Shown in pieces: positions 5,588 to 46,978 of a stretch of DNA of 64,000 bases (position 1 is its first letter; the number at the start of each line of letters is the position of its first letter). The notes beneath the pieces are model-generated. The model had not been told where the DNA came from, searched no databases, and saw nothing but the letters and a program-made list of their open reading frames with translations. The position numbers and the translations under genes were made by a program. Origin of the DNA: Geobacteraceae bacterium (lineage in GTDB: Bacteria > Desulfobacterota > Desulfuromonadia > Geobacterales > Pseudopelobacteraceae); NCBI GenBank assembly GCA_016720395.1, contig JADKKR010000008.1, positions 404 to 64,403 on the forward strand, written 5' to 3'.

Positions 5588-6649
5588 TTACTGCCGGAGG
5601 CGAAGCGCCGAAACGATCCTGCCGCCTCCCAGGACTTCATCCCCCCGGTAGAAGACCACCGACTGCCCCGGGGTGACCGCTTTCTGCGGATCGGTGAAAC
5701 GCACCTCGCAGGTCCCGTTCTCCATTATCAGGGCCCGACAGGCAACCGGCTGATGCCGGTAGCGGATCTTGCAGGTGACGTCGCATCCGGTCTCCAGAGG
5801 TTTGATGACCCAACTGAGGTCTGTCGCCAGGAGCCCCTCTGCAAAGACATGCTGCTGTTCTGCCACCACCACCCGGTTGTCTTTTATCTCCAGCGCAACA
5901 ACATACAACGGTTCGCTCCAGGCAATGCCTAACCCTTTTCGCTGTCCGATCGTGTAGCGGTGTGTGCCCGCATGTCGCCCAACCACCTGCCCGTTCAGGT
6001 GAACGATCTCACCACCCGTATCAGCCAGCGCAGCATTCCCCTCAAGAAACGCAACATAGTCATCGCCCGGGATGAAGCAGACCTCCTGGCTGTCACTCTT
6101 TTCTGCAACCGGCAGGCCGAATTCCCTGGCCAGGCGGCGCACCTCGTCCTTGCTTGCTACATCACCAAGCGGAAGGAGCAACCGGCTGAGGCGCTCCTGT
6201 GTCAGGGTGTAGAGGAAATAGGACTGGTCCTTGTGGATGTTGCGAGCCATGCGCAGGTGGCAGGTGCCATCAGGGTCGATGCTCTTTCTGACGTAATGTC
6301 CGGTGGCCAGAAGCTCTGCGCCAAGTTCGCGGGCCTTGTCCAGCAGCAGTCCGAACTTGATGAAGCGGTTACAGCGTATGCAGGGGTTGGGTGTGTGGCC
6401 GCAGCCGTACTCAGCGATGAAGTCGTTGATGATCAGTTCACGGAATTCATCTTCAAAATCAACCACATGATGCGGGATGCCCAGATGGTCGGCAACAACG
6501 GCTGCATCATGGGCGGCCGAGCCGCTGCCGGTGGTGCAGGGGACGAACAGCCGCATGGTGATGCCGACCACCTCATGGCCCTGCTGTTTCAGGAGTGCGG
6601 CGGTCACGGATGAATCCACTCCGCCGCTCATGGCAACAGCGATCCTCAT
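5588..6649 (-). CDS. mnmA: tRNA 2-thiouridine(34) synthase MnmA
   Basis: PP-loop MSGGVDSS, conserved CIRCN and the full-length MnmA pattern. Confidence 0.9.
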   Translation of the reverse strand: MRIAVAMSGGVDSSVTAALLKQQGHEVVGITMRLFVPCTTGSGSAAHDAAVVADHLGIPHHVVDFEDEFRELIINDFIAEYGCGHTPNPCIRCNRFIKFGLLLDKARELGAELLATGHYVRKSIDPDGTCHLRMARNIHKDQSYFLYTLTQERLSRLLLPLGDVASKDEVRRLAREFGLPVAEKSDSQEVCFIPGDDYVAFLEGNAALADTGGEIVHLNGQVVGRHAGTHRYTIGQRKGLGIAWSEPLYVVALEIKDNRVVVAEQQHVFAEGLLATDLSWVIKPLETGCDVTCKIRYRHQPVACRALIMENGTCEVRFTDPQKAVTPGQSVVFYRGDEVLGGGRIVSALRLRQ

Positions 6650-7449
6650 CCTTCTTCTCCCAGGATAATCCTGATCACCTGATTGGCCTGGTGTCCGGCG
6701 GCAATGCCGACCCGCGGGGCCATCAGGCCGCTGCCGGGCTGTGCCTCTGAGGTGCCGTCTCCGCAGAGATACAGCCGGGAGGAAATGCGTCTGGTCGTAA
6801 TGGCATTGTTCGGGCCGTATCCGGCCAGTCCCGACGCGGCGACCACCGTTACCCCGGCCATCTGCTCCAGGACCGTATCCACCAGCATGGCCTTCATATC
6901 GGCCCGGTCGAAGGCCTCCACGATGATGCCGCAGGCGGCAAAGATGACCGGGATATTCGCCGGATCAAGCAGGGACACATGCGGTTCAACGCTGACATAG
7001 GGGTTGATGCGCTGCAGGTTGTCGGCCAGCGCCACAACCTTGGGCTGTCCGATCTGGTCGATGAAATACTGCTGGCGGTTGAGGTTGGAGGGCTCGACCA
7101 CATCGAAATCGGCAATGACGAGCGTCCCGATCCCCACCCGCGCCAGGGCTACTGCCACAGCCGACCCCAATCCACCGGCACCGGCGATCCCCACGCGTGC
7201 CTCTTTGAGGCGTGCATGCACACCGGGTGTGTGCCGGGCTGACATGAGGCGTTCCAGCTCTGCTTTCTCGGGCTGCTCGCCGCGTCGGATCAGGAACAGC
7301 TCGTCCCCTTCCTGCAGCAGGGTTCCCGCCGATGCCGGGAAACCGTTCAGGATCAGCACGTCGGCCCCGGGTTTGTGAATGCTTGCAAGATCACCCAGTG
7401 TGGTGTTTTCGGTGACTGCAACATCATGTTCGTTAATGCGAATGTTCAT
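6646..7449 (-). CDS. thiF: ThiS-like beta-grasp domain fused to a ThiF/MoeB-type E1 adenylyltransferase
   Basis: N-terminal ~65 aa are ThiS-like (VNG-type LILNGF...GDELFLI). Then GIAGAGGLGS Rossmann motif and DFDVVEPSNLNRQ. 4-nt overlap with mnmA. Confidence 0.8.
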   Translation of the reverse strand: MNIRINEHDVAVTENTTLGDLASIHKPGADVLILNGFPASAGTLLQEGDELFLIRRGEQPEKAELERLMSARHTPGVHARLKEARVGIAGAGGLGSAVAVALARVGIGTLVIADFDVVEPSNLNRQQYFIDQIGQPKVVALADNLQRINPYVSVEPHVSLLDPANIPVIFAACGIIVEAFDRADMKAMLVDTVLEQMAGVTVVAASGLAGYGPNNAITTRRISSRLYLCGDGTSEAQPGSGLMAPRVGIAAGHQANQVIRIILGEEG

Positions 7450-7502
7450 GGCAGGATTATCCTGGATCGGTTCAAAAATAAAAAATAAAAATCAACTCTC
7501 AC

Positions 7503-16543: not shown

Positions 16544-16587
16544 TTGACACGAATAATAATTTTGTTTATCTATAGTCTTAATAGATA
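16544..16587 (+). promoter_or_regulatory. rrf2 promoter with overlapping 21-bp palindromic operator
   Basis: TTGACA (16544-49), 17-nt spacer, TATCTA. Palindrome TATCTAT-N7-ATAGATA at 16567-16587 reaches the ATG, so the mRNA would be nearly leaderless. Confidence 0.6.
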
Positions 16588-17048
16588 TGATATCCAAGAA
16601 AACAATATACGCCTTCAAAGCGCTGATACATCTTGCCGGGACTCCCAGCGGTCAACCAGTGCTGATCGCCGACCTGGCCAGGGTTGAGAACATACCCAAG
16701 AAATTTCTTGAGTTCATACTGCTGTCCTTACGCAAAGGCGGACTGCTTCAAAGCAGGGTTGGAAAAGGGGGCGGGTATACCCTGGCTCTGCCGGCTAACA
16801 GGATTAGCATCGGTTCGATCGTGCGGATACTTGAGGGTGATATCGCTCCGGTACAATGTCTCAGTACAACCAATTATGCGCGCTGCGAAGAATGTCAGGA
16901 TGAGGCTACCTGTGGAATCCGGCTTACCATGGCCGATGTGAATGTGGCCCTCTGCACTGTTCTTGACGGACTGACCCTGGCGGATATGATCGAGCGAAGT
17001 GAGGCGGAGCGAAATAAGCGGCAGAATGTAGTCGATTACAACATATAA
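16587..17048 (+). CDS. Rrf2-family transcriptional regulator (CymR/IscR-like, probable Fe-S ligand cysteines)
   Basis: N-terminal wHTH MISKKTIYAFKALIHLA...GGGYTL. Cys cluster CLSTTNYARCEECQDEATC. Lies upstream of cysK. Confidence 0.85.
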   Translation: MISKKTIYAFKALIHLAGTPSGQPVLIADLARVENIPKKFLEFILLSLRKGGLLQSRVGKGGGYTLALPANRISIGSIVRILEGDIAPVQCLSTTNYARCEECQDEATCGIRLTMADVNVALCTVLDGLTLADMIERSEAERNKRQNVVDYNI

Positions 17049-17114
17049 TTTTTTTCAGCGTAATGCCTATGTATTCTATAGAAAATTAAATAGTGGCTAC
17101 GAAAGGAGATTTCA

Positions 17115-18068
17115 ATGAGCAAGATCTATGCAGACAACTCCCAGTCCATCGGCAACACTCCCCTGGTTAAGCTGAACAACATTGTCGGAAACGCAAAGGC
17201 CACCATCCTGGTCAAGGTTGAGGGACGTAACCCTGCCTATTCGGTCAAGTGCCGCATCGGTGCCAACATGATCTGGGATGCTGAGAAGCGGGGGATCCTC
17301 AAGCCGGGAGTCGAGATCATCGAGCCGACCTCAGGAAACACCGGCATCGCACTGGCTTACGTGGCCGCCGCCCGTGGCTATAAGCTGACCCTTACCATGC
17401 CTGAGACCATGAGCATCGAGCGCCGCCGCGTATTGGCCGCCCTGGGTGCCAACCTGATCCTGACCCCGGGTGCCGAAGGAATGAAGGGTGCTATCAGCCG
17501 GGCCGAAGAGATCGCCGCTGCCGAACCTGACAAATATTTTCTGCCCCAGCAGTTCAAGAACCCGGCCAACCCGGAGATTCACGAGAAGACCACCGGTCCC
17601 GAAATCTGGAACGACACCGACGGTGCAATCGACGTCCTGGTTGCCGGGGTCGGTACGGGGGGGACCATTACCGGTATATCCCGCTATATCAAGAACACCA
17701 GGGGCAAGAAGATCATCTCTGTAGCGGTGGAGCCCAAGGAAAGCCCGGTTATCAGCCAGAAGCTGGCCGGTCAGGAAATTAAGCCGGCACCGCACAAGAT
17801 TCAGGGAATCGGTGCCGGTTTCATCCCCGACACCCTTGACCTCTCTGTCGTCGACCGGGTGGAGCAGGTATCCAGTGACGAAGCGATTGAGTTTGCCAAG
17901 CGTCTGGCCAAGGAGGAGGGCCTGCTTGTGGGCATCTCCTGCGGCGCTGCGGTTGCTGCCGCAGTCAGGCTCGCCAACCTTGATGAATTTGCCGGCAAGA
18001 CGATTGTTGTCATACTGCCTGACGGTGCCGAGCGCTATCTTTCCACGGCGCTGTTCGAAGGGATCTGA
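17115..18068 (+). CDS. cysK: cysteine synthase A (O-acetylserine sulfhydrylase)
   Basis: [12 protein letters not shown] lysine in [15 protein letters not shown] loop. RBS AAAGGAG. Confidence 0.92.
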
Positions 18069-18633: not shown

Positions 18634-20424
18634 ATGAAGAAAACAGTATTGAAGCTGGCACTCGCGGCACTGGTTGCAGGGACGGTCCTGCCTTTGTCGG
18701 CTCAGGCGGCAGATGATGCGCTCATGAAAAAAATTGAGCAGCTATCGCAGGAGCTTGAGCAGTTAAAGACACAAGTGAAAGCGAATGAGGCAAAGGCCGC
18801 TAAAGCAGCCGAAGATAAGAAAGGCCCGGTTCAGAAGTCCGATACGAAAGAAATTGAGGAGTTGAAAAACAAGATCGCCAAGGTCGAAGAAAAATCATTA
18901 AGCAAATGGTTGACAATTGGTGGTGATTACCGATTCCGCGTAGATTCTCTGCATGGGCAGACTAAGGCATATACAGATCCCAATGTGATGTTCACAAATG
19001 TTGGGCAACAACTGCAGATGGCTGCTTTTGTAAACCCAACAGCACCCAGTGCCTTTATGCCCGGTTTTACAGCTGGGCAGGCGCTGACCGGATTTATGCA
19101 GTTCGGTAATCAAATGAAAGCGACTAATACCTATGCCGGAGCGCTTGCATTTCTAAATCCAGCAAATCCCTTCGTAGCAGGGTTACCAATGCTTGCACCT
19201 GCCGGTGCTGTTGCATCCTTCAAACCCAAGAATGAAACCCTCTACACCAACAAGTTCGGTCTCGACCTTACCGCCAAGGCAACCCAGAACATTACCGTAC
19301 ATGCCAAGCTGGACATGTACAAAACGTTCGGTTCCCAGAATGATTCCCAGGTTACCGGCAACTACTTCGCCGATCGTGTCGGGGTATTTGACGGCACACT
19401 CGGGCATGTACCGTCTGACGGGCTCCTGAATGTTGACCGGGCCTTTGCCACCTGGAGCAATATCCTCGACCAGCCGATGTGGTTCTCCGTTGGCCGTCGT
19501 CCCTCAACCAATGGTGCACCGAGCAATCTGCGTCTGAACAACGAGCGTCCCGGCAATGGCGGAACTCCTTCTTTACTTGTTGATTACGCATTCGATGGCA
19601 TGACCATTGGATACGCCCCCGATATCGAAATGCTGCCGGGAGCATATGCCAAAGTATGTTACGGCAGAGGATTTGACAGCGGAATTAAAACTTCGACTAA
19701 CAGCATCAAGGACACGGATATGCTCGGAGTGGCCGTGATTCCGGTTGACACAGATCCATTGCGGGTCTGGATGCAGTGGAATCGTGGATTCGATATCTTC
19801 GATTTTCCGGTTATGAACAATACGGTCTTCGGCGACACCGCTCCCGCTGTCAATCTTGGTGACATCGACTGGTATGGAGTCGGCGCCATGAGTACCCTCA
19901 AGAAAGTCGGCCCGGGAAACCTGAATGTGTTCACTGACTTTGGTCTGAGCGTAACGCATCCCAACAGCAATGTGTCGGGACAGGCTGGATTCCAGGGCTT
20001 AATGACCGGGGCATTCTTTGCGCCTGAAGCCCCGACCAGCAAGACCGGCTGGGCAATATTTGCAGGCGTGCGCTATGATCTGCCCTCGAAGACCAAGATC
20101 GGTTTCGAGTTCAATCACGGATCTAAGGACTGGATCACCTTCGCTCCTGCAGCAGACGATATGTGGACCAGCAAAGTCGGAACCCGCGGCAATGTGTATG
20201 AACCCTATATCATCCAGGAACTGGATCTTAAACCAATCTCATCCTACTTGAGCAAAGCATTCTTCAGGCTCGGATACCAGTATTACGATTTTGAATACAC
20301 CGGCAGCAACAACTGGGTCGGCGCACCACAGAAGATTTCCGATATAAAGTCTTCCGATATGATGCTCATGGCACCGGTAAGCAAGGCGCATGACGTTTAT
20401 GCCACCTTTGAGGTTAAGTTCTAG
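18634..20424 (+). CDS. outer-membrane porin-like protein with N-terminal coiled coil (DUF3373-like)
   Basis: Signal peptide ...PLSAQA, heptad-rich segment IEQLSQELEQLKTQVK...IEELKNKIAKVEEK, beta-strand-rich body, C-terminal YATFEVKF (terminal Phe). RBS GAGGGAG. Confidence 0.75.
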   Translation: MKKTVLKLALAALVAGTVLPLSAQAADDALMKKIEQLSQELEQLKTQVKANEAKAAKAAEDKKGPVQKSDTKEIEELKNKIAKVEEKSLSKWLTIGGDYRFRVDSLHGQTKAYTDPNVMFTNVGQQLQMAAFVNPTAPSAFMPGFTAGQALTGFMQFGNQMKATNTYAGALAFLNPANPFVAGLPMLAPAGAVASFKPKNETLYTNKFGLDLTAKATQNITVHAKLDMYKTFGSQNDSQVTGNYFADRVGVFDGTLGHVPSDGLLNVDRAFATWSNILDQPMWFSVGRRPSTNGAPSNLRLNNERPGNGGTPSLLVDYAFDGMTIGYAPDIEMLPGAYAKVCYGRGFDSGIKTSTNSIKDTDMLGVAVIPVDTDPLRVWMQWNRGFDIFDFPVMNNTVFGDTAPAVNLGDIDWYGVGAMSTLKKVGPGNLNVFTDFGLSVTHPNSNVSGQAGFQGLMTGAFFAPEAPTSKTGWAIFAGVRYDLPSKTKIGFEFNHGSKDWITFAPAADDMWTSKVGTRGNVYEPYIIQELDLKPISSYLSKAFFRLGYQYYDFEYTGSNNWVGAPQKISDIKSSDMMLMAPVSKAHDVYATFEVKF

Positions 20425-20435
20425 TCTGATTGCTA

Positions 20436-20474
20436 TCCGGGCAGGAGTGTCCTGCCCGGATCATGCTTGTTTTT
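20436..20474 (+). terminator. hairpin (attenuator or weak terminator) after the porin gene
   Basis: Perfect 10-bp stem TCCGGGCAGG-agtgt-CCTGCCCGGA. The T-run begins 9 nt later. Confidence 0.5.
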
Positions 20475-20555
20475 AGCCGCTTGCACATTTACAAAACTCT
20501 GGCAGAATTGTCTGGCAGAACTAACGAGATCAACACAGCAGGTAAGGAGTTCAAC

Positions 20556-20879
20556 ATGAAAAGAATAGTTTCAATCGTTATGCTGGTAGCCTTGATGGTT
20601 TTTTCGACACTTGCCTTCGTGCAAAACGCCAGTGCAGAAGAAGCTAAGATGGTCGGAACCATATCCAAAATCGAGATGTCTGCCGACAAAAAGTCTGCTA
20701 CTGCAATCCTTAAAGACACAAAATCCGGTGAAGAGGTAACAATCATAATCACTGACGAACAGACGCTCGACAAATTCATGGACAAGCGAATTGTCGAAGG
20801 TGATGAAATCCGCTGCAAATACGAAAAAGTAGATGGAAAGAACAATAGCAAGATATTTAAGAAAACGGCCGGCTGTTAA
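20556..20879 (+). CDS. small secreted protein ending in ...KKTAGC (C-terminal Cys)
   Basis: RBS AAGGAG 7 nt upstream of ATG 20556. Signal peptide MKRIVSIVMLVALMVFSTLAFVQNASA. 107 aa. The upstream part of track ORF 20430 is unsupported. Confidence 0.7.
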   Translation: MKRIVSIVMLVALMVFSTLAFVQNASAEEAKMVGTISKIEMSADKKSATAILKDTKSGEEVTIIITDEQTLDKFMDKRIVEGDEIRCKYEKVDGKNNSKIFKKTAGC

Positions 20880-20902: not shown

Positions 20903-22312
20903 ATGCGTTCTGAAACTCAATTATCTGCTGTACTTGCACTTGTGGCTGGCCTTTCATTCTCGGCTGCCATTGCCACTGCTGCAGAGCCCGCTGCACCAGC
21001 GGCAAAACCGTCCATCGCCAAAATCTGTACCAACTGCCACAAGGCCGAACCTAATGCAGTACGAGGCTATTTTGACAATGTCGCATTCAAGGCCAAGACC
21101 ATTCAAATCAAGATCGACGACGCCATCGAACTGATCAAGTTTGACGAGGACGAGATCAAGGTTGTAAACGGCGCGGGCAAGACTGGTGATGGTGAGTTTC
21201 TTAAAGATAACAAGGTGAAAAAAGGTCACGAGGTCAAAGTCGAGTATATCGAGAAAGCCGGTGTTAAAACGGCTGTCAGGCTGATTGAAAAGCCGCCGGT
21301 CAAGATCCCGGCTGAAATGATGATAAGCACCGCAGAAGTGGAGAAACTGGTCGCGCAGGGGCCGGAAAAAGGGAAGTACTTCCTGTTCGACTCACGCCCA
21401 TTGCCGCGCTTCCAGCAAGGAGCCATCCCGACAGCTCTAAACCTCCCGTTCCCGGCCTTTGATAAACTGGCTGACAAACTGCTTCCCAAGCAGAAAGATG
21501 CCTTGATAATTTTCTATTGTCAGGGGCCTTCGTGTAACATGAGCCCCGGTTCTGCTGATAAAGCTAAAAAACTAGGCTATACCAATATTAAGGTATACAA
21601 GGACGGCATTCCGGCATGGCAACTGAGAAACTACGCTGTTGTATCCGCCGCATTCCTCAAAGAAGCCTGGATTGACAAAGACATCCCGCATGTTTTATTG
21701 GATGCCCGCGCTGCAAAAGTTGCAGCAAAAGGCTACATAAAAGGCGCAGTAACATCTTCTGTCAAAGCTGGTGCTAAGTTTGTTAAGGCACTTGATGTCA
21801 AGAAAAGTGCTCCGATCGTTGTTTATGACCAGCAGGGCGGTAAGGATGCCGCATCCGTTGCCGCCAGACTTATTAAGGCCGGCTTCAATAATGTGCAGGT
21901 CTTGACAGGTGGTTATGATGGCTGGCTGTCAGCTAAATATGAAGTTGTAACCGGTGAGCTTGCCAAGAAAGCGGTCTATGTGCCCAAACCGCGTCCGGGC
22001 GAAATTAATCTGGAAGAGTTCAAGAAGTATGTTGCCGAACTGCCGGCAAACGTCATGATCATTGATGTCCGTAACACCGATGAAGGCAACTCCGGCATGC
22101 TCAAGGTCGCCAAACTGATTCCGGCCGAAGAGATCAAGGATCGCGCAGCAGAAATCCCTAAAGACAAGTTGCTTGTTACTCTCTGCTCAACCGGTGTTCG
22201 GGCGGAGATGGCGTATCATACGCTGAAAGAGCTTGGTTACACCAATGTCAAGTTTGTCAACGCCAAGATGGAATTTGAAAAGAGCGGCTCGTATAAGATT
22301 ACAAAGGATTGA
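20903..22312 (+). CDS. periplasmic monoheme c-type cytochrome fused to three rhodanese domains
   Basis: Signal peptide, one CTNCH motif. Rhodanese loops FYCQGPSCN (domain 1), VYDQQGG (domain 2, no Cys) and TLCSTGVRA (domain 3). Confidence 0.85.
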   Translation: MRSETQLSAVLALVAGLSFSAAIATAAEPAAPAAKPSIAKICTNCHKAEPNAVRGYFDNVAFKAKTIQIKIDDAIELIKFDEDEIKVVNGAGKTGDGEFLKDNKVKKGHEVKVEYIEKAGVKTAVRLIEKPPVKIPAEMMISTAEVEKLVAQGPEKGKYFLFDSRPLPRFQQGAIPTALNLPFPAFDKLADKLLPKQKDALIIFYCQGPSCNMSPGSADKAKKLGYTNIKVYKDGIPAWQLRNYAVVSAAFLKEAWIDKDIPHVLLDARAAKVAAKGYIKGAVTSSVKAGAKFVKALDVKKSAPIVVYDQQGGKDAASVAARLIKAGFNNVQVLTGGYDGWLSAKYEVVTGELAKKAVYVPKPRPGEINLEEFKKYVAELPANVMIIDVRNTDEGNSGMLKVAKLIPAEEIKDRAAEIPKDKLLVTLCSTGVRAEMAYHTLKELGYTNVKFVNAKMEFEKSGSYKITKD

Positions 22313-22320
22313 GAACTCAG

Positions 22321-22364
22321 CGCGTGCGATTTCAGCCTTAACCTGAAATCGCACGCGTGTTTTA
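22321..22364 (+). terminator. rho-independent terminator
   Basis: 15-bp stem CGCGTGCGATTTCAG-ccttaac-CTGAAATCGCACGCG followed by TGTTTT. Confidence 0.8.
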
Positions 22365-22492: not shown

Positions 22493-23860
22493 ATGTCTGG
22501 AAAAATTGTAGCAATACTGGTGGGATGTTCTTTGCTTGCAGCAACTGTTCAGGCTAAGGATCATCCAGGAAAAGAATATGTTCTAAAAAATGGCTACCAG
22601 GGTCCAAAAACCTGTGAAACATGCCATCCGGGCAAAGCCAGGGAGTTTCTTGGAACCGTACATTGGAAACACGCCTCAAAAGTGGATCATGTAGACAATA
22701 TTAACCCGAATGAAGAGCATGGGATGAAAGATCGTATCTACACCATGTGTAACGGTAACGATATCGTCAATAACCTTAAGGAAGTGCCACCGAATGCTCT
22801 TGGCAAGACCAAATTTACCGGATGCAATACCTGCCATCCGGGGGATCATACAAGTGATGTCGGCAGTACCGGCCCCCAGGCGGAACAGGCCATAGACTGC
22901 CTGATCTGCCATTCCAGCAAGTATGACTTCAGCAAAAGAAAAGCGGTCAAGGATAAGGACGGCAAGGTTGTGATGACCCAGGACCGCAGTACCGAGGCAG
23001 CGGCCAACATCGGCCGGCCAACCATCAAGAACTGCATGATCTGCCACGAGGCTGCCGGCGGCGGTGCCATGATCAAGCGGGGATTTTCAATGGCAAAAGA
23101 CGCTGAGGTCCACGTTACCAAAGGCATCATCTGCATTGACTGTCATCAGGTGAAAAACCACAAGTTTCCCACCGGCCGTGATCCAAACAACTGGGCCCAT
23201 GACGGCATCTACATGACCTGTGTCGGTGAATGTCATAGTGCCAAGCCGCACAGTGATGCCGACTATAACAGGCATACTGCAACGATTGCCTGCCAGACAT
23301 GCCACATCCCCAAAACCGGGGGAGCCTTTTCCAAAGACTTCACCAAATGGGAAAAACAATCCAACGGGTTTTACGAGCCTTCTACCTTGAAGCGCGAGGT
23401 GAATGAAACCGCACCGGTATACGCCTGGTACAATCTGACCGTCAGCAATACCCCGCACTTTATCGGCCCCAAGGGTAGTAGAACTGATGGAAAGAGCAAA
23501 ATCTACCCATTCAAGATTTTCCAGGGCAAGGCATATTTCAACAAGAAAGACGGACAACTGCTCTCAATGGATTTTGCGCCGCCGATTGCAAACGGCGACA
23601 CCCTTGCCGGTGTGGCTTCTGCTGCCAGGATACTTGGAATCAAGGACTATGAACCGGTTCCGGGGTGGCAGACGATCTACTTTGGCAGCAACCATCAGGT
23701 TACACCAAAAAACAAGGCTTTGAACTGTGCCAACTGCCATGCGCTCAACGGCGTGCTTAATTTTAAAGAACTGGGATACAGTTCCAAGGAAGTGGAGCGG
23801 CTTACCAATCCTGAACTCTATTTTGAAAAACTGCTCAAGCTGCAGCAGGAGAACGAATAA
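22493..23860 (+). CDS. periplasmic octaheme-class c-type cytochrome
   Basis: Signal peptide. Seven CXXCH motifs (CETCH, CNTCH, CLICH, CMICH, CIDCH, CQTCH, CANCH) plus one CX3CH (CVGECH). Confidence 0.85.
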   Translation: MSGKIVAILVGCSLLAATVQAKDHPGKEYVLKNGYQGPKTCETCHPGKAREFLGTVHWKHASKVDHVDNINPNEEHGMKDRIYTMCNGNDIVNNLKEVPPNALGKTKFTGCNTCHPGDHTSDVGSTGPQAEQAIDCLICHSSKYDFSKRKAVKDKDGKVVMTQDRSTEAAANIGRPTIKNCMICHEAAGGGAMIKRGFSMAKDAEVHVTKGIICIDCHQVKNHKFPTGRDPNNWAHDGIYMTCVGECHSAKPHSDADYNRHTATIACQTCHIPKTGGAFSKDFTKWEKQSNGFYEPSTLKREVNETAPVYAWYNLTVSNTPHFIGPKGSRTDGKSKIYPFKIFQGKAYFNKKDGQLLSMDFAPPIANGDTLAGVASAARILGIKDYEPVPGWQTIYFGSNHQVTPKNKALNCANCHALNGVLNFKELGYSSKEVERLTNPELYFEKLLKLQQENE

Positions 23861-23903: not shown

Positions 23904-26102
23904 GTGTCACCCAAATTTTCTCGAAGGACATTTTTCAAGGTGTCAGGCGCAGCTACTGCCGGCTTGACCGTAGCGGCATCGGTACCGAAAAAGTTCCTAT
24001 CCTGGGCCGAAGAGGCCGGGCAGAAAGATATGAAACAGATTCCCACCTTCTGCGAACTCTGTTTCTGGAACTGCGGCCTTGTCGCCAAGGTGGAAAATGG
24101 CAAGGTCATCAAGGTCGATGGAAATCCACTCAGCCTGCGTGGCCGCGGCCGTCTCTGCGGCCGTGGCAATGCCGCACTGGGAGCGTTGTACGACCCGGAC
24201 CGGCTCAAGTACCCGATGATCAATACCGGCAAGCGCGGCGAGCCGGTCTGGAAACGGGCCACCTGGGACGAGGCGCTTGGTCTGATCGCCGAAAAAATGA
24301 ACGCTATCAAGCAAAAACATGGTGCCGAGTCCATGGCGCTCTTCTCACACGGAACCGGTGGGGCTTTCTGGAAACATCTGCTCAAGTCATATGGCTGTAG
24401 CAACTACACCGCCCCTTCGTTTGCACAGTGCCGCGGTCCGCGTGATATGGGTTTTTACCTGACCTACGGGTCAGACGTCGGATCGCCTGAATACTACGAT
24501 TTCAGCAAAAGCAAGTACATCGTCCTGCTTGGCTCGCATCTCGGTGAAAATGCCCATAACAGCCAGGTGCAGGACATCATGAACGGGTTGGCCGATGGCG
24601 CGCGTTTGACCGTGGTGGATCCGCGCCTCTCCAATATCGCCTCCAAGGCCGATCGCTGGCTGGCTATCAAACCTGCCAGCGACTTGGCGCTGCTTCTGGC
24701 CTGGATCAGGATCATTATTGAAGAGGGGTTGTACGACAAGGAATATATCGAAAAATACGCATCCGGATTCGATGAGCTGCGGGCTGCTGTTCAGCAGTAT
24801 ACTCCTGAGTGGGCCGAGGCCGAGACAACCATTCCGAGTGATACCATTGTCAAGGTGGCCCGCGAGATGGGCAGGAATGCACCTCATGTCTGTGTCGGTG
24901 CCGGCCGCTATGCTGTCTGGTATGGAGACGATACGCAACGCAGTCGTGCGATTGCGATACTCAACGCCCTGCTTGGTTCCTGGGGCCGTGAGGGGGGCTA
25001 TTTCTTTCCTGCCAAGGGTGGTGTGCCCGAATATCCAGGACTGCCGGAGTATCCACCCCACGCGGATGTGCCCAAGCTGGATGAAGCTTATCCGTTCGCT
25101 GCACTGCAGACAACGACTTCCATCAAGCATGCCTCAATCACCGGCAAGCCGCACCCGATCAAAGGGTGGTTCATCTACGGCTGCAACCTGATGAAGACCA
25201 TGCCGGACAAGCAGGAGACCATCAAGGCCCTGCAGAATCTTGAGCTCGTAGTCGCCATCGACGTTCTGCCGGCCGATATCATCGCCTGGGCCGATGTTGT
25301 CCTCCCGGAGTGCACCTATATGGAGCGCTACGATAATATCAACGTCGGCAAATTCAAGGATCTGGAGATCTCCCTGCGCCAGCCGACCATCGAGCCGCTC
25401 TGGGAGACCAAGCCATCCTGGTGGATGACCAAGGAACTTGGCGGCAAGCTTGGCCTGTCTGCCTACTTCCCCTGGAAGGACGGCGAGGAATATCTGGCCA
25501 AACGTTGTGAGGCGGGCGGCATCGATTTTGCCGAACTGAAGAAAAAAGGCGTCATAGTCAAGACAGACAAGTCGGCTCCCTACATAACCGATGAGAGTCA
25601 ACCGGAATTCGGGACCCCTTCCGGCAAGATCGAGCTGTATTCCAAGCAGCTGGAGGAGAAGGGTTTTGATCCCGTGCCGAAGTACACCAGGCATCCCCAG
25701 CCGCCGGCCGGCCACTTCCGGCTGCTGTTCGGGCGGTCGCCACTGCACACCTTCTCCCGGACAACCAACAATTTCATGTTGACCGACCTGCAGAAAGAAA
25801 ATGCACTCTGGATCAATACGAAAAAAGGGAAAGAACTGGGGTTAAAGGACGGCGAATATGTCTCGCTCGTCAATCAGGACGGGGTCAAGGCGCCCGGCCG
25901 GATCAAGGTCAAGCTGACCCAGCGTATGCGTGATGATGCCGTGTACATGTACCATGGCTTCGGTGTTCATGCCAAGGGTATGACCCGGGCCAACAATCAG
26001 GGGATAGCGGATGATGACCTGATTTCAAAATATGTCATTGACCCGATCATGGGCGGCACTGCCATGCGCGGGAATTTTGTCAAGATCGTGAAGGGGGCCT
26101 GA
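23904..26102 (+). CDS. Tat-exported molybdopterin oxidoreductase catalytic subunit, polysulfide/thiosulfate/tetrathionate reductase-like (PsrA/PhsA class)
   Basis: GTG start with RBS TAGGAGGTAA. Twin-arginine motif SRRTFFK. N-terminal FeS motif CELCFWNCG. 732 aa MopB pattern. Confidence 0.88.
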   Translation: MSPKFSRRTFFKVSGAATAGLTVAASVPKKFLSWAEEAGQKDMKQIPTFCELCFWNCGLVAKVENGKVIKVDGNPLSLRGRGRLCGRGNAALGALYDPDRLKYPMINTGKRGEPVWKRATWDEALGLIAEKMNAIKQKHGAESMALFSHGTGGAFWKHLLKSYGCSNYTAPSFAQCRGPRDMGFYLTYGSDVGSPEYYDFSKSKYIVLLGSHLGENAHNSQVQDIMNGLADGARLTVVDPRLSNIASKADRWLAIKPASDLALLLAWIRIIIEEGLYDKEYIEKYASGFDELRAAVQQYTPEWAEAETTIPSDTIVKVAREMGRNAPHVCVGAGRYAVWYGDDTQRSRAIAILNALLGSWGREGGYFFPAKGGVPEYPGLPEYPPHADVPKLDEAYPFAALQTTTSIKHASITGKPHPIKGWFIYGCNLMKTMPDKQETIKALQNLELVVAIDVLPADIIAWADVVLPECTYMERYDNINVGKFKDLEISLRQPTIEPLWETKPSWWMTKELGGKLGLSAYFPWKDGEEYLAKRCEAGGIDFAELKKKGVIVKTDKSAPYITDESQPEFGTPSGKIELYSKQLEEKGFDPVPKYTRHPQPPAGHFRLLFGRSPLHTFSRTTNNFMLTDLQKENALWINTKKGKELGLKDGEYVSLVNQDGVKAPGRIKVKLTQRMRDDAVYMYHGFGVHAKGMTRANNQGIADDDLISKYVIDPIMGGTAMRGNFVKIVKGA

Positions 26103-26103
26103 T

Positions 26104-27261
26104 ATGCGGCTATTCGGAGTTCTCATTCCTGAAAAGGAACAGCTTGTTGCCACAGCATCTGATGTCGTTAAAGGGAAAGCCGGCCTGACACTGTACGTAT
26201 CCCTGTTCGGTCTGGCGATCGGATTCTATGCCATCGCCGCCATCTTCATCAAGGGACATGCCCACACCATCAACACCTCCAACCTGGTGCCCTGGGGGAT
26301 GCAGATATCGACCTATATTTATTTTGCACTTCTCAGCACCGGCTGCACCTTTGTGAATTTTTTCGGCCACGTTTTCTTTGAAAAGCAGTACCGGCCATTT
26401 GCCTCGCGGATCATATTTGTCGGCATCATCACGGCGGTGGCAGCCTTCTTCTCCCTGGCAACCGAGATGGGGCATATCGAGCGGATGTACTACTTCCTGC
26501 TGTCACCAAACCCGAAGTCTCCCATGTTCTGGATGGCTATCTGGTACACCTGCTATGTGATCGCAATCACGTGGGAATACATAAATATCCAGAACAACAG
26601 GCATTCCAACAGGGTCATGTGGGGGGCTTTCTTTATCGCGATCTTTACCCATAGCACGCTGGGAAGCCTGCTTGGGTCGGTCAGTTCACGAGTCTACTAC
26701 TATAGCGCACTGATGCCGATCTACTTTCTGTTTATCGCCTTTCTGACCGGTTGCTCACTGACAACGATTATTGCCGCCCTTACGGTCAAACAGAAAAATC
26801 TGGACGAGAACTACCATCTGCATCCGTTTGTGACCTTGCTCAAGGTCGGTTTGGGACTGGCGCTGCTGATCACCTTCTGGCGAACCATGATCGGCCTGTC
26901 GGCGCACCTGGAGGGGTCCGAGGTGTTCTCTCTGACGCTGATCAACAGCGTGCTGTTCGGGATCGTGGTCGTCATCATGATCCCCTACTTCCTGCTCAAG
27001 ATGGGCAAGAGTGCCAACTGGCTGATCTTTGTAGGTCTGTTTATCATGGGAACCCAACTCAAGGCCCGTAACGACCTGGTTGTCGGCGCTTTCAAGATTC
27101 CGCTCTTCAGAGTTTATGACATGCCTGAGGTTGTGCACTACACGCCATCAATCTATGAGAATCTTGTTGTTGTGGCGTCCGCTTCGCTCGTGATGGTGCT
27201 GTATATTATTTTCGAACGATCAGGCGTTTTTGAGGCGCGGAACATCAAGGAGGACCACTGA
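26104..27261 (+). CDS. NrfD/PsrC-type integral membrane quinol-interacting subunit
   Basis: 385 aa, highly hydrophobic multi-span protein. Starts 1 nt after the MopB stop. Confidence 0.85.
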   Translation: MRLFGVLIPEKEQLVATASDVVKGKAGLTLYVSLFGLAIGFYAIAAIFIKGHAHTINTSNLVPWGMQISTYIYFALLSTGCTFVNFFGHVFFEKQYRPFASRIIFVGIITAVAAFFSLATEMGHIERMYYFLLSPNPKSPMFWMAIWYTCYVIAITWEYINIQNNRHSNRVMWGAFFIAIFTHSTLGSLLGSVSSRVYYYSALMPIYFLFIAFLTGCSLTTIIAALTVKQKNLDENYHLHPFVTLLKVGLGLALLITFWRTMIGLSAHLEGSEVFSLTLINSVLFGIVVVIMIPYFLLKMGKSANWLIFVGLFIMGTQLKARNDLVVGAFKIPLFRVYDMPEVVHYTPSIYENLVVVASASLVMVLYIIFERSGVFEARNIKEDH

Positions 27262-27263
27262 CT

Positions 27264-27981
27264 ATGGAACAGTTCGACGGTAAAGATATTCTGGAGATCA
27301 TGCACGCTGATCTGCAGCGGGCCTTGAAAAAACCGCGTAAAGAGCGTCGCTGGGCCATGGCGATCGATCTGAAGAAGTGTATCGGCTGCCATGCCTGCAC
27401 CACCGGCTGCATGTCCGAAAACCTGACCCCGCCCGAGATCCACTATCGTCCTGTCAAGGAAGAGGAGATCGGTGAGTTCCCCAATACCGGCATTCGATTT
27501 CTGCCGCGTCCCTGCTTTCAGTGCGATTCGCCGACCTGCACCCCGGTCTGCCCGGTGACCGCCACCTATAAACGGGACGATGGCCTGGTTGTCATCGATT
27601 ACAAAAGGTGCATCGGCTGCCGCTACTGCATTGTCGCCTGTCCCTACGGGGCCCGTTCAGCAGATTCGGGGCATTACTATACCGGAGATTTTCATGACAA
27701 GACCTACGAGGTGGAGAACTCAGGCGAGTACGGCGAAACGTTCAAGCGCAAGAGTCACTGGCACTCTCCGATCGGTAATGCCCGCAAATGCCATTTTTGC
27801 ATCCATCGCGTGGAAAAGGGGGAACTGACCCGCTGTACGACCACCTGCCTGGGCAGTGCCACCTACTTCGGTGACATCAATGATCCCGCATGCGCTGATA
27901 ACAAAGCTGATATCAAAGCCGAACGTTTTTCGATACAAGGAAGAGATGGGAACAAAGCCGATGGTGTACTACATACCCTAG
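27264..27981 (+). pseudogene. 4x[4Fe-4S] ferredoxin subunit (PsrB-like) with a +1 indel near 27885-27887
   Basis: Four Cys clusters (CIGCHACTTGC, CFQCDSPTCTPVCP, CIGCRYCIVACP, CHFC...CTTTC). After GDINDP the family C-terminus ...LITKLISKPNVFRYKEEMGTKPMVYYIP* continues in the next frame, ending at TAG 27979-27981. Confidence 0.8.
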
Positions 27982-28043
27982 CACTGATGGCCCGACGGAG
28001 TCGGCAGGCATCGTTGCAGAAAAATTGCTGTGGAGGAGGGATT

Positions 28044-28388
28044 ATGAGGCTGAAATCAATCTGGCTGTTGGCAGCATTACCGGTGTTGCTGTGCGGAATT
28101 GCTTACGGCGCAGCCATGCAGGACATCATCTATAAGGGCGATAAGGCCACGGATGAGGCCATATTCCATGGAGACAAGCATCTGAAGAGGGGCTTTACCT
28201 GTAATGACTGCCACAACAGGGAGATGTTCCCGAAAAAGGAAAAAGGGGCAACGGTCATAACCATGAAGGCCATCCAGCAGGGTAAACTCTGTGGGAAATG
28301 CCATAACGGGAAGATTGCATTCGGGATCGACCATCACTGTGACAGGTGTCACCCACGGAAAGGTCCTGACACGCTCATTTATGACTGA
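28044..28388 (+). CDS. triheme cytochrome c7/c3-family protein
   Basis: Own RBS GGAGGAGGG and signal peptide MRLKSIWLLAALPVLLCGIAYGA. CNDCH, CGKCH, CDRCH. Hidden inside track ORF 27264-28388. Confidence 0.8.
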   Translation: MRLKSIWLLAALPVLLCGIAYGAAMQDIIYKGDKATDEAIFHGDKHLKRGFTCNDCHNREMFPKKEKGATVITMKAIQQGKLCGKCHNGKIAFGIDHHCDRCHPRKGPDTLIYD

Positions 28389-36739: not shown

Positions 36740-39700
36740 ATGGCCAACCTCGGCTTTGCAGGTAAAATTGCCCGCGCATTCATAAACTCGAAACTGACCC
36801 CGCTGATCGTAGGAGCATCCTTATTGCTGGGGCTCTTTGCTGTCAAGATGACCCCCCGCGAGGAAGAACCGCAGATCGTGGTGCCCATGGTGGATATCTA
36901 CCTCCCCATGCCCGGTTCCACCCCGCAGGAGGTTCAGGAGCGGGTAGTCAAGCCTTTGAGGCCAAATTGTGGGAGATCAAGGGGGGTCGAGTACCTCTAT
37001 TCCATGAGCCGGCCGGGCATGGGGATTATCACCGTGCGCTTCCTGGTGGGACAGCCGATGGAGGAGTCGCTGGTCAAGCTCTACAACAAGGTCATGAGCA
37101 ATCGCGGCGTTCTGCCGCCGGGTGCCGGTGAACCGCTGGTGGTGCCGAAGTCCATCGACGACGTGCCGATCATGGCCCTGACGCTCTGGTCGGAACGTTA
37201 TGACCATGGCACCCTGCGTACCCTGGCCAGGGAAGTGGCCGATGAACTGAAGAAAAGCGAAAACAGCGCTGAGGTGGAGATCAAGGGAGGGCTGCCCCGC
37301 CAGCTGCGGGTGACTCTGGATGCCCCTCGTCTGGCCGGTTACGGTCTGTCCCCGCTGCAGGTGGCGGGAGCCCTTCAGAAGGGTAATGCTTCTCTGCCGT
37401 CGGGGTCATTTTCCGGTGCCGACAAGGAAACCACCGTGGTGACCGGCGGCTTCCTTGACAGTGCCGATGCGGTAGAGCGAACGGTAGTTGGGGTCTACGG
37501 CAACAAGCCGGTCTACCTGAGTGACGTTGCGCAGATCCAGGACGGTGTTCAGGAACCGGAGGATTATGTCTTCATGGGCATGGGACCGGGAGCCGCCCAT
37601 AAGAAGCTCACCGGGAAACCCCGGCAGGACTATGCTGCGGTGACTATCTCCGTGGCAAAGAGGAAGGGGGCCAACGCCACCTGGGTAGCCGAGGACCTGG
37701 TAAGAAAGGTCGAGTCACTCAAGGGCAAGGTGATCCCCTCCGATGTGCAGGTAACGATCACCCGCAACTACGGCGAGACCGCCAAGGAAAAGAACAATGA
37801 GCTGCTCTTTCACATGTTCCTGGCTGCCATCTCGGTCACGATCCTGATTGCGGTCTTCATGGGCTGGCGCGCAGGAGCAGTAGCCGCCATAGCCATCCCG
37901 GTCACCCTGGCGTTGACCATGCTGATCTTCTACCTGATCGGCTACACCCTCAACCGGATCACGCTCTTCGCCCTGATCTTCTCCATCGGCATTCTGGTGG
38001 ACGACGCCATCGTGGTGGTAGAGAACATCCACCGCTACTTTACCACTACGGTAATGAAGCCGCTGGATGCCGCCATCAAGGCGGTGGATGAGATCGGCAA
38101 CCCCACGATGCTGGCCACTTTTGCCGTCATTGCCTCGATCCTGCCCATGGGGTTCGTGGGCGGCCTGATGGGCCCCTACATGCGCCCGATACCGGTCGGT
38201 GCCAGCATGGCCATGCTTTTCTCCATGCTGATAGCCTTTATCGTCACACCATACTTTGCCTTCCGTTTCACGAAGGGCGAGTCCCACCACGGCTCAGGTG
38301 AGGCACCGGAGGATTCCCGGCTTACGGCCTTTACCGTCTCTGGATGGGGCGCCTGATCCACGAGAAGGGTCTGCGCTACGGTTTCCTGTCCGCGGTGGTG
38401 GTCATGCTGCTGCTCTCCTGTTCCCTGATCCTGTTCAAGGCCGTGACGGTCAAGATGCTCCCCCTTCGACAACAAGAACGAACTGCAGGTGATCATCGAT
38501 GCCCCGGACGGAACGTCGCTGGAGCAGACCGCCCGCATAACCCGCGAGATGGGCGATGCCCTGCGTACGGTGCCGGAGGTGACTGATTTCCAAATGTATA
38601 TCGGTCCAGCGCCCCGTTCAATTTCAACGGCCTGGTGCGTCATTATTACCTGCGCAAGGGCTCGAATCTGGCAGACATTCAGGTCAACCTGCTGCCCAAG
38701 GATCAGCGCAAGGATCAGTCCCACGCCATAGCCAAGCGCATCCGCCCGCTGGTCAAGTCCATCGCCGACAGGCATGGCGCCCGGGTCAAGGTGGCCGAGA
38801 TTCCCCCCGGCCCGCCGGTACTCTCCACGCTGGTAGCCGAGATCTACGGCCCTGATGATGCCAGCCGCCGGCATTGCCGGCAAGGTCAGGATATTCTCAC
38901 CCGGACCGCCGGCGTTGTTGATGTGGATATGTACCGTGAAGATGATCAGAAGAAAGTCACGTTTGCCGTGGACAGTGAAAAAGCAGCCCTCTCGGGCATT
39001 GCAAGAGGATGTCGCCCGTACACTATCCATCGCCCTGGGAGGACAGAATACCGGCATGCTGCATCTGCCCAGGGAAAAGGAGCCGGTCTATATACATCTC
39101 CGCCTGCCTGCCGGACAACGCAGTTCTGTGGCCGATCCTCGTCGATCCAGGTCCCGGGTCAGAAGGGAGTGTTCCGCTCTCCCAGCTGGTGAAGGTATCG
39201 ACAGGCAGCGAAGAGAAGACCCTTTACCGTAAAAACCTGAAGAACGTAGTCTATGTCATCGGTGATGTGGCCGGTGAGATCGAGGCCCCGGTCTATGCGA
39301 TCCTCAAGATGCAGAAAGAAATTGCCGACCTGCCAACCCCGGACGGCTCGAAGATCGAAGTCCTGGCATCCCGGCAGCCTTGGAGCGAGGAAAAGATGGG
39401 CATGAAGTGGGACGGTGAATGGCACATCACCTACGAGGTATTCCGTGATCTGGGCATCGCTTTCGGTGCGGTTATGGTGCTGATCTATATCCTGGTGGTG
39501 GCCTGGTTCAAGGATTTCACCACACCGCTGGTGATCATGGCCCCCATTCCGCTGACCCTGATCGGTATCCTGCCTGGCCATGCCATGTTCGGCGCCTTTT
39601 TACCGCCACTTCCATGATAGGCTTCATCGCACTGGCAGGGATCATTGTGCGCAACTCGATTATCCTGATCGATTTTGCCGAGATGAAACGTCGCGAGGGA

Positions 39701-42748: not shown

Positions 42749-42764
42749 ATAACAGGAGATGAAG

Positions 42765-43764
42765 ATGGACTATAAAAAAATAGCAACGACTCTGGCTTCA
42801 CTGGCCATGGTCCTGTTCACATCGGTGGCGTCACCTGCGGCGGGCATAACCCTGTTAAATGTGTCTTATGACCCGACCCGTGAATTGTACACAGAATTTA
42901 ACGGCGCCTTTACCCGCTACTGGCAGAAGAAAACCGGTGATAAAGTCACGATCAAGCAGTCCCACGGTGGTTCCGGCAAGCAGGCCCGGTCTGTTATTGA
43001 CGGTTTGGAGGCTGACGTCGTTACACTGGCACTGGCCTATGATATCGATGCACTTGCAGAGAAGGGGCTGATCAAGCCGGGTTGGCAGAAAGAGCTGCCC
43101 CACAACAGTTCACCTTTTACATCGACAATTGTCTTCCTGGTACGCAAGGGTAACCCCAAGAAAATCAAGAACTGGGATGACCTGATCAAGCCGGGTGTCT
43201 CGGTCATCACCCAATCCCAAGACCTCAGGCGGAGCGCGTTGGAACTACCTGGCTGCCTGGGCCTTTGCCCTGCACCAACCGGGTGGTACGGATGCCAAGG
43301 CAAGATTGTTTGTCGCCAAACTCTTCAAGAACGTTCCGGTGCTGGACTCCGGTGCCCGCAGTTCAACCAACACCTTCGTTCAGCGCGGACTCGGTGATGT
43401 ACTCCTGGCCTGGGAGAACGAAGCCTTCCTGGCGATCAATGAGCTGGGACCGGACAAGTTTGAGGTTGTGACCCCATCGGAGAGCATTCTGGCCGAACCG
43501 CCGGTAGCCGTAATCGACAAGGTGGTTGACCGGCACGGGACCCGCAAAGTGGCCGAAGAGTACCTGAAATACCTTTACACCGACGAAGGTCAGAAGATCG
43601 CGGCCAAACACTACTACCGCCCGATCAACACCAAGATTCCGACGAAACTGGCCAAGGTGAAGCTCTTTACCATCGACAAGACCTTTGGTGGCTGGCAGAA
43701 GGCTCAAAAGACACATTTTGCAGACGGTGGTACGTTTGACCAGATCTACGCACCTGCTAAATAA
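42765..43764 (+). pseudogene. sbp: sulfate/thiosulfate ABC transporter substrate-binding protein, frame break near 43210
   Basis: Signal peptide. ...KPGVSVIT | [20 protein letters not shown]... is the classical Sbp/CysP motif, reached by switching from track ORF 42759 to 43195. Confidence 0.85.
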
Positions 43765-44001
43765 GCAGGGAGCGGGTAAGTTCAGGCCTCTCCCCGGCGA
43801 AAGAGCAGGTTGCAACATCTTCGAGTGTTTTTGCCGGGAAAAGTATTTCTTTTATGCACGATCTCCTTTCACCGGTTAGCGGGCTGTACAGCATTCCTGA
43901 AGAGGTCCCGCGCATGAGCTGCACATCAAAAAATCTTCTATCCAGGCCGATAATGGGTTATTGTCACAATTTATGTGCATGCCGGATACTGGGATAACCC
44001 T

Positions 44002-44832: not shown

Positions 44833-44934
44833 TAAGTTAGAAATCAGTTTCTGCGGCCTTTGCAGAAAATGAGTTCGTTAAATGATGAGTTCGTTAACCA
44901 CGTATCCTGTTCATTAGGGCAACGGAGACTTGCC

Positions 44935-45805: not shown

Positions 45806-45821
45806 TCGGCAGGAACTGACT

Positions 45822-46894: not shown

Positions 46895-46978
46895 CACATT
46901 AGAACCTGTTGCAGTGCTGGTATGCTTCTCTGGAATCTGATACGACACGAATCCTGCAAGTAGAACCGAGGACAGATA

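Follow-up and report, generated by a model that had tools for sequence, protein, structure and literature searches.

Rhodaneses in general, the Sud protein, and fusions of rhodaneses to redox modules have all been described before. Sud of Wolinella succinogenes is an exported homodimer of single-domain subunits with a rhodanese fold, a catalytic Cys, and no cofactor, and it works with the polysulfide reductase PsrABC. We have analyzed a 64,000-nucleotide stretch of a Geobacteraceae bacterium genome (GenBank assembly GCA_016720395.1, contig JADKKR010000008.1, positions 404 to 64,403 of the forward strand; hereafter, the window) containing a gene for an exported protein with three rhodanese modules and a probable covalently bound heme. 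The family to which this protein belongs is syntenic with psrABC. Unlike Sud, it combines its three modules with an OB-like domain bearing a CxxCH motif and with a Cys/selenocysteine pair. No significant match to Sud was obtained in PDB sequence or structure searches.

NADH-dependent persulfide reductase (Npsr) and the coenzyme A (CoA)-disulfide reductase-rhodanese fusions (PDB 3nta, 3icr, and 8a56) resemble the window protein in having a rhodanese fused to a redox cofactor module, which in these enzymes permits reduction of a persulfide. However, they are cytoplasmic and use flavin adenine dinucleotide (FAD) and NAD(P)H, whereas the window protein is predicted to be periplasmic, lacks a flavin domain, and has instead a heme motif of the c type. 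TsoB is a rhodanese selenoprotein with a UxxxxU loop that is fused to a DsbD-like module (review, PMC13188914). Module 1 of the window protein matched the TsoB model NF045694 over profile positions 45-158 of 572 with an E-value of 9e-15 and 53.8 bits, against a model cut-off of 805. The U-x4-U of TsoB falls at the position of C206-x4-C211 in module 1, and in both proteins a rhodanese loop would be paired with an electron-supplying module. The supplier in TsoB is a DsbD-like membrane thiol-disulfide relay and the loop has two selenocysteines; by contrast, the window protein has a heme motif and no DsbD-like membrane domain, and the first loop position in its family is always Cys. TsoB is thus a precedent for attaching an electron supplier, which would here be the heme, to a rhodanese whose loop contains a chalcogen pair. 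An initial annotation of the window, made from the DNA sequence without database searches, had held that heme-free rhodaneses cannot carry out redox-coupled chemistry. The existence of FAD-fused Npsr and DsbD-fused TsoB makes that statement too strong.

MccSep (ExtKL) of Geobacter sulfurreducens cleaves polysulfide by means of a selenocysteine and a heme-linked Cys, and its authors stated that the periplasm may contain additional sulfur-transfer components (PMC13510729). The combination of heme, Cys, and selenocysteine acting on S-S bonds in the periplasm, in the same ecological and genomic setting, makes MccSep a possible analogy in chemistry (PMC13510729). There is no homology between the two proteins. 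MccSep is a multiheme (pentaheme) cytochrome whose Cys is a heme ligand, whereas the window protein has one heme motif and carries its Cys/selenocysteine position in a rhodanese loop.

How insoluble sulfur and polysulfide reach periplasmic reductases is an open question for anaerobes, and the abundant heme-motif rhodanese family described here is a concrete candidate for the missing periplasmic sulfur-transfer component. Our preferred explanation, to which we give a probability of about one half, is that the protein is a periplasmic sulfane-sulfur transferase or reductase that serves the Psr system and in which electrons pass between the heme and the Cys/selenocysteine pair. If heme and pair do cooperate, the family would provide a new coupling of electron transfer to persulfide chemistry, a new heme c-binding fold, a family of selenoproteins whose genes are at present broken at the UGA by gene callers, and a testable function for a conserved small protein with a C-terminal Cys.

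Architecture of the protein and the putative heme site

The gene (20903..22312, + strand) encodes a 469-residue protein, as translated from the window DNA, and has a Shine-Dalgarno sequence (GGGAGGG) 8 nt 5' of its ATG. A single CTNCH sequence (C42, C45, and H46; 21026..21040, +) is a putative covalent heme c attachment site; 0.00045 CxxCH motifs would be expected by chance from the protein's own composition. The match to PF00581 (Rhodanese) comprised three stretches, at 139.4 bits against a cut-off of 22.2, and NCBIfam rhodanese models matched residues 140-248, 263-348, and 379-462. A full-length AlphaFold2 model, built on a 53-sequence alignment, had a mean predicted local distance difference test score (pLDDT) of 90 and a predicted template modeling score of 0.79. 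The model shows, in order, a signal helix, a short helix at CTNCH (residues 40-44), a β-barrel (strands within residues 52-129), and three α/β modules. These modules have rhodanese folds at residues ∼143-247, 249-345, and 370-467, for which Foldseek searches of the PDB returned the multi-rhodanese protein 1yt8, EanB, YnjE, and SseA at E-values of 1e-15 to 1e-10, and also bovine rhodanese. The single heme motif and the three modules of the initial annotation were thus recovered, the C-terminal modules included.

All three rhodanese loops are present as first noted. Module 1 (21329..21643, +) has the loop FYC206-QGPS-C211-NMSP (21512-21538), with FYCQGPSCN at residues 204-212. Module 3 (22010..22303, +) has the canonical persulfide-forming loop C428-STGVRA (residues 428-434; 22184-22204), in which C428 is kept in 33 of 34 homologs chosen for diversity. 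Both C206 and C428 lie directly after the central β-strand, as expected of a rhodanese catalytic Cys. Module 2 (21647..21937, +) contains no Cys. The AlphaFold2 strand register puts D309 of its VYDQQGG loop (residues 307-313; 21821-21841) after the central strand, at the position equivalent to C206 and C428, which agrees with the earlier assignment of Asp to the catalytic position; the MAFFT register, shifted by one residue, instead puts Q310 there. There is no Cys in either register, and module 2 is presumably an inactive, non-catalytic copy. The best PDB sequence matches of module 3 were the rhodanese domains of persulfide and CoA-disulfide reductases. Modules 2 and 3 together resemble a classical inactive-plus-active tandem rhodanese. 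A linker motif between modules, YVPKPRPGE (residues 359-367; 21977..22003, +), is invariant or nearly so in alignments A1 and A3.

Export of the protein is indicated by a Sec-type signal peptide at residues 1-27 (20903..20983, +), which had also been recognized initially. The N-terminus (MRSETQLSAVLALVAGLSFSAAIATA, followed by AEP) has the n-h-c arrangement typical of such peptides as judged by inspection, and the predicted cleavage site between ATA and AEP is kept in homologs as AxA followed by (A/E)P. AlphaFold2 placed a helix at residues 6-25 of this region with low confidence. In the window protein, the signal peptide contains no Cys that could belong to a lipobox. Many orthologs (P0007, P0009, P0016, and others) have Cys13 in a VTAC-like context that is a possible lipobox, with the AxA-AEP cleavage site there too. 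Some of the orthologs with Cys13 may be lipoproteins like ExtH of G. sulfurreducens.

The family is large. A first search returned >1,100 relatives, and a broader profile gave 2,177 clusters at E ≤ 1e-8. The >2,000 clusters at 90% identity are spread over Desulfobacterota, Betaproteobacteria, Acidobacteriota, Nitrospirota, and Myxococcota, and wherever members have been named, the label is "rhodanese-related sulfurtransferase," "sulfurtransferase," or "rhodanese-like." A locus scan with one genome per species yielded 80 loci from Geobacterales, Desulfuromonadales, Nitrospirota, Betaproteobacteria (including the isolate Rubrivivax sp. A210), Holophagae (Geothrix), Anaeromyxobacter, and Oligoflexia. 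The N-terminal domain alone retrieved 90 representatives from among 1.84 billion proteins, and every full-length representative (∼441-470 residues) has the same four-part architecture. Literature searches found neither a heme-rhodanese fusion of this architecture nor a description of an OB-like heme-motif domain.

The region between the heme motif and module 1 had been described as a β-rich linker of ∼100 residues. It is instead a confidently predicted domain: residues ∼50-130, modeled alone, gave a pLDDT of 92.6 and an OB-like β-barrel (residues ∼50-132; 21050..21298, +) that carries the CxxCH helix and ends at the near-invariant K130. The best PDB matches of this domain were the OB-fold metallochaperones CusF and SilF and cold-shock domains, with template modeling scores of 0.5-0.67 and E-values of about 1e-3. 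No cytochrome was among its PDB structural matches, and neither Pfam nor NCBIfam gave a cytochrome profile match to the rhodanese protein. A possible kinship of the domain with the small protein encoded upstream was dropped as evidence; BLASTP gave no match, and the hhalign probability was 56%, over 24 columns.

The CxxCH motif is under strong purifying selection across phyla. It was found in 119 of 120 close homologs, in 239 of 240 homologs when two clades were combined, in 74 of ∼76 full-length proteins from the loci (down to 47% identity), and in all 34 members of the deliberately diverse set (30-100% identity). It also occurs in 83 of the 90 N-domain representatives, the other seven being mostly fragments that are N-terminally cut or frameshifted, and it is kept across five phyla. 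In a Rubrivivax metagenome-assembled genome (MAG; L077) the motif is CTAACH, that is Cx3CH, and the His still adjoins the second Cys; in P0035 a Gly stands in place of the first Cys (IGTNCH). A CxxC dithiol motif is not expected to tolerate an insertion, so the Cx3CH variant disfavors a dithiol role. The conservation of CxxCH is likewise hard to explain as a dithiol motif and argues for real heme attachment, and we infer a covalent heme c at C42/C45.

An alternative is that CTNCH is not a heme site at all, and that a CusF-like barrel binds a metal ion through Cys-Cys-His or the two Cys residues form a redox disulfide. The structural matches to CusF and SilF favor this alternative, as do the missing cytochrome profile match and the lack of a conserved distal ligand. 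Nevertheless, we regard it as very improbable. In >300 sequences the residue following the second Cys is invariably His, the place of this His next to that Cys is preserved in the Cx3CH variant, and the metal ligands of CusF (Met, His, and Trp) differ from the residues conserved here. Every host lineage, like the gene cluster, is rich in c-type cytochromes, and System I of cytochrome c maturation is established to accept essentially every CxxCH that is exported.

None of the His or Met residues that might act as the sixth heme ligand is conserved among the 34 diverse homologs. H109 was considered and rejected, since it is invariant in close homologs but replaced by Arg, Ala, or Glu in the betaproteobacterial clade and other clades. 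K130 is kept in 33 of the 34. Candidates for the distal ligand are K130, K63, and C206/C211, or there may be none.

Cys and selenocysteine at position 211

C206-x4-C211 was conserved in 238 of 240 homologs. The codon for residue 211 in the window gene is TGT (21533-21535), and the window protein is thus the Cys form. In three Nitrospirota loci (L047, L048, and L050) the codon aligned with Cys211 is an in-frame TGA, after which the frame runs on through the remaining modules. The same arrangement occurs in L081 (FFCAGAT-TGA-GLG...), where the read-through product would have 467 residues and the gene caller had split the gene into two rhodanese genes. The TGA positions are L047:10514, L048:5196, L050:10529, and L081:8622. 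All four loci have a GC-rich hairpin +19 to +35 nt after the UGA, with one compensatory pair, and the Cys-type window copy has a weak hairpin remnant at the same place (-8.9 kcal/mol, z -0.9). In addition, seven to nine diverged representative open reading frames (193-215 residues, 30-52% identity) end exactly one residue before position 211, and the members of their clusters come from many contigs.

The TGA loci and the reading frames that stop at this point indicate that the family alternates between selenocysteine and Cys at position 211, which on the sequence evidence is selenocysteine in diverged relatives. The presence of selenocysteine marks C206-x4-C211 as a redox or catalytic pair, and in the window protein the two residues look like a redox pair. 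Literature searches found no selenocysteine at such a loop position in a heme-motif rhodanese, the "form 1, UxxS" rhodanese selenoprotein of the review (WP_010941598.1) being left uncompared. Gene callers split the selenocysteine-type relatives either into two "rhodanese" genes or into a ∼200-residue fragment; one such fragment carries the source label "nitrite reductase cytochrome c552 subunit."

The initial annotation had proposed a redox-coupled sulfurtransferase. In favor of this proposal are the conservation of CxxCH, the selenocysteine at position 211, and the synteny with psrABC described below; the lack of a cytochrome fold and of a conserved distal ligand speaks against it.

Gene neighborhood and proposed mechanism

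About 50 Geobacterales loci share the gene order DUF3373 porin, small protein, rhodanese gene, (octaheme cytochrome), psrA, psrC (NrfD), and psrB, followed further along by genes for a 12-heme cytochrome, a 9/10-heme cytochrome, a Rieske protein, and a cytochrome b. In the window, the outer-membrane β-barrel (porin-like) gene lies at 18634..20424 (+; PF11853, E-value 5.5e-158) and the small-protein gene at 20553..20879 (+). The octaheme cytochrome gene, which no more than about half of the related loci possess, lies at 22493..23860 (+). It is followed by psrA (23904-26102, +), psrC/NrfD (26104-27261, +), and psrB (27264-28388, +), the last with an in-frame c7-type triheme part; psrC and psrB were assigned with Pfam, and psrA matches the Thermus polysulfide reductase 2vpw with an E-value of 1e-207. 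The psrABC genes are the most conserved neighbors of the rhodanese family across phyla. Betaproteobacteria have an operon psrA-psrB-psrC-rhodanese gene, with genes for YeeE-type sulfur transporters nearby, and in Holophagae the rhodanese gene adjoins a porin gene and Psr-like or multiheme genes. Synteny with psrABC therefore extends over three phyla (Geobacterales, Betaproteobacteria, and Holophagae), which makes polysulfide reductase a candidate partner of the rhodanese protein.

The small gene ends 23 nt upstream of the rhodanese gene and encodes an exported protein of 108 residues with the C-terminus ...FKKTAGC. In all 50 homologs of this protein from related loci, ...KKTAGC (KKSAGC in one) directly precedes the stop codon, and no Pfam family matches the protein. 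L067 (gene matched at 6212-7471) and P0143, two rhodanese-family members without such a neighbor, have Lys-rich C-terminal tails of their own that end in Cys (...KKRARSEGC and ...KKKKAKAAGGGC) and resemble the tail of the small protein; no adjoining small gene was detected in L067. The conserved C-terminal Cys and the tails in these two members suggest that the small protein is a partner of the rhodanese protein and carries sulfur on a swinging arm, and it may be a carrier of the SoxY-like type. A 16-bp hairpin followed by a T-rich tail stands directly after the rhodanese-gene stop codon (22320..22358, +) and is terminator-like, and a strong hairpin with a 12-bp stem (20435-20461) after the porin gene is terminator-like or processing-site-like. 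The hairpins on either side and the 23-nt gap suggest that the small gene is transcribed together with the rhodanese gene as a two-gene unit.

In the mechanism that we prefer, a heme c bound to C42/C45, with H46 as the proximal ligand, would be seated on the small OB-like barrel rather than on a cytochrome fold. Modules 2 and 3 would act as a classical tandem rhodanese, taking sulfane sulfur from polysulfide or thiosulfate to form a persulfide on Cys428, and the sulfur would then be handed among Cys428, the C-terminal Cys of the small protein, and Cys206. From here two routes can be envisaged. The sulfur could be delivered to the neighboring PsrABC polysulfide reductase in a Sud-like role, or C211 (selenocysteine in relatives) could attack the Cys206 persulfide with release of sulfide. 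The resulting C206-C211 disulfide, or selenenylsulfide in relatives, would be re-reduced by the heme one electron at a time, and the heme would in turn be fed by the periplasmic cytochrome pool, namely the c7 part of PsrB, the octaheme tetrathionate reductase (OTR)-type cytochrome, and the downstream 12- and 9-heme cytochromes. The sulfur relay, the flow of electrons from heme to pair, and the reductive rather than oxidative direction are inferred, as is the attachment of the heme.

Several points weigh against this mechanism. The nearest structural neighbors of the N-terminal domain are copper/silver chaperones and not cytochromes, the heme itself is putative, and it has no conserved His or Met opposite H46. 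The CxxCH motif is retained in P0124/L076, L043/L045, and P0207, which have lost the module-1 Cys residues, so that the heme cannot act only through the C206/C211 pair. The selenocysteine-type genes in Nitrospirota and in L081 lie among housekeeping genes with no psr nearby. PsrABC is not known to require an additional electron donor, and the chemistry in betaproteobacterial hosts may run oxidatively.

A rival explanation is a pure Sud-like shuttle, in which the rhodaneses bind polysulfide sulfur for PsrA and the heme is a passive relay or docking element outside the sulfur chemistry. The tight psrABC synteny, including the betaproteobacterial four-gene operon, and the canonical module 3 loop are as expected of such a shuttle, as are the persistence of CxxCH where the module-1 Cys residues are lost and the established electron path that PsrABC (2vpw) has of its own. 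On the other hand, the occurrence of selenocysteine at position 211 is a sign of demanding chemistry, redox or nucleophilic, more than of simple carriage, and a relay heme usually has a conserved His or Met as distal ligand, none of which was found here. A shuttle for PsrA is also difficult to reconcile with selenocysteine-type genes that occur without psr, and we consider it rather unlikely.

A bolder possibility, still doubtful in our judgment, is that the family forms a new class of periplasmic S-S bond-cleaving enzyme in which heme c on the OB-like domain feeds electrons straight into the Cys-x4-Cys/selenocysteine pair, and in which the small partner, by its C-terminal Cys, serves as a swinging-arm carrier of the SoxY-like type. 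By analogy with MccSep, TsdA, and SoxAX, the heme of such an enzyme is possibly ligated by the loop Cys/selenocysteine or lies directly beside it. The enzyme would then be a heme-driven persulfide/polysulfide reductase that needs no flavin, molybdenum, or thiol relay.

The direction of the chemistry bears on a further alternative, that the protein takes sulfur from sulfide or persulfide and the heme carries electrons off to periplasmic cytochromes, at least in betaproteobacterial hosts. The family is common in Burkholderiales-type MAGs and Rubrivivax, an SQR-like flavoprotein is found among the betaproteobacterial neighbors along with sulfur transporters, and the His/Cys hemes of SoxAX and TsdA work oxidatively (cited in PMC13510729). 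However, the setting in the window is that of a Geobacterales organism that reduces sulfur and metals and has a Psr-type reductase, and no sequence feature fixes the direction. We judge oxidative operation to be quite improbable.

The window cluster also invites comparison with the extHIJKLMNOPQS cluster of G. sulfurreducens, which encodes the rhodanese lipoprotein ExtH, the porin ExtI, the 104-residue ExtJ, ExtKL, the 12-heme cytochrome ExtM, the 10-heme cytochrome ExtN, the Rieske protein ExtO, and the cytochrome b ExtP (PMC5877670, PMC6148476). ExtH (GSU2940) is a rhodanese-family protein of ∼49 kDa that is likewise encoded with a porin, a small protein of ∼104 residues, and ExtM/N/O/P-type cytochromes. 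It is set apart by its description as a non-cytochrome lipoprotein, whereas the window protein has a CxxCH motif and no lipobox. The gene order also differs, being H-I-J-KL in the ext cluster, with ExtH upstream of ExtI, and porin, small protein, rhodanese in the window, where ExtKL is replaced by the OTR-type cytochrome and psrABC. Chan et al. reported that 10 of 18 ext-like regions carry "a different rhodanese-like protein," and the heme-motif family may be one of these. None of the 80 loci of the family scan came from G. sulfurreducens. Assignment of the window porin as an ExtI ortholog was not supported, the former being a DUF3373 protein and the latter filed under phosphate-selective porin O/P (Porin_O_P).

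SrrE and SrrF of the Bacillus selenitireducens selenite reductase operon are multi-rhodanese accessory proteins that, like the window protein, are encoded with a PsrA-family molybdoenzyme (PMC12481199). Compared by description only, they differ in coming from a Gram-positive host and in having no reported heme motif. These systems raise the possibility that the Psr-like enzyme is an Srr-type selenite reductase and that the rhodanese protein binds or reduces selenium species, or handles tellurium. The pairing of a PsrA-family enzyme with two rhodanese-domain proteins in the srr operon (PMC12481199) is consistent with this, as are the implication of the ext cluster, with its porin ExtI and rhodanese ExtH, in selenite/tellurite reduction (PMC5877670) and the activity of MccSep toward selenite (PMC13510729). 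We nevertheless think a selenium or tellurium function unlikely. The closest solved relative of the molybdenum subunit is polysulfide reductase (E-value 1e-207), the neighboring cytochrome is of the OTR type, and YeeE-type sulfur transporters accompany the family in other phyla. Moreover, sulfur compounds are far more abundant substrates, and no selenium-specific sequence feature was found.

Further features of the window

The octaheme cytochrome has seven CxxCH motifs and one Cx3CH motif (TCVGECH) and was assigned to the OTR family by TIGR04315 and by its match to PDB 1sp3 (E-value 8.5e-26). Its place is the one taken in the ext cluster of G. sulfurreducens by ExtKL, a pentaheme selenoprotein. 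Orthology of this 455-residue neighbor to ExtKL/MccSep was rejected on the basis of its eight heme motifs, its OTR family membership and 1sp3 match, and the lack of a match to NF040886.

The psrB gene (4Fe-4S dicluster) has an internal Met and a signal-peptide-like segment (MRLKSIWLLAALPVLLCGIAYGA) before the c7-type triheme part, and the psrB and triheme parts match separately in several related loci. The window gene may be a true fusion or two genes.

Sulfur assimilation genes flank the cluster on both sides. Upstream, 16587-18068 encodes an Rrf2 regulator and a pyridoxal phosphate-dependent (cysteine synthase-like) enzyme; downstream, 42759-47674 encodes a sulfate-type binding protein, a permease, and a 3'-phosphoadenosine 5'-phosphosulfate reductase. 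An AcrB-type RND transporter, following OEP and HlyD genes, is present in pieces as a 538-residue N-terminal half (36740-38356) and a 202-residue fragment (39009-39617), and the split may reflect a frameshift or a pseudogene.

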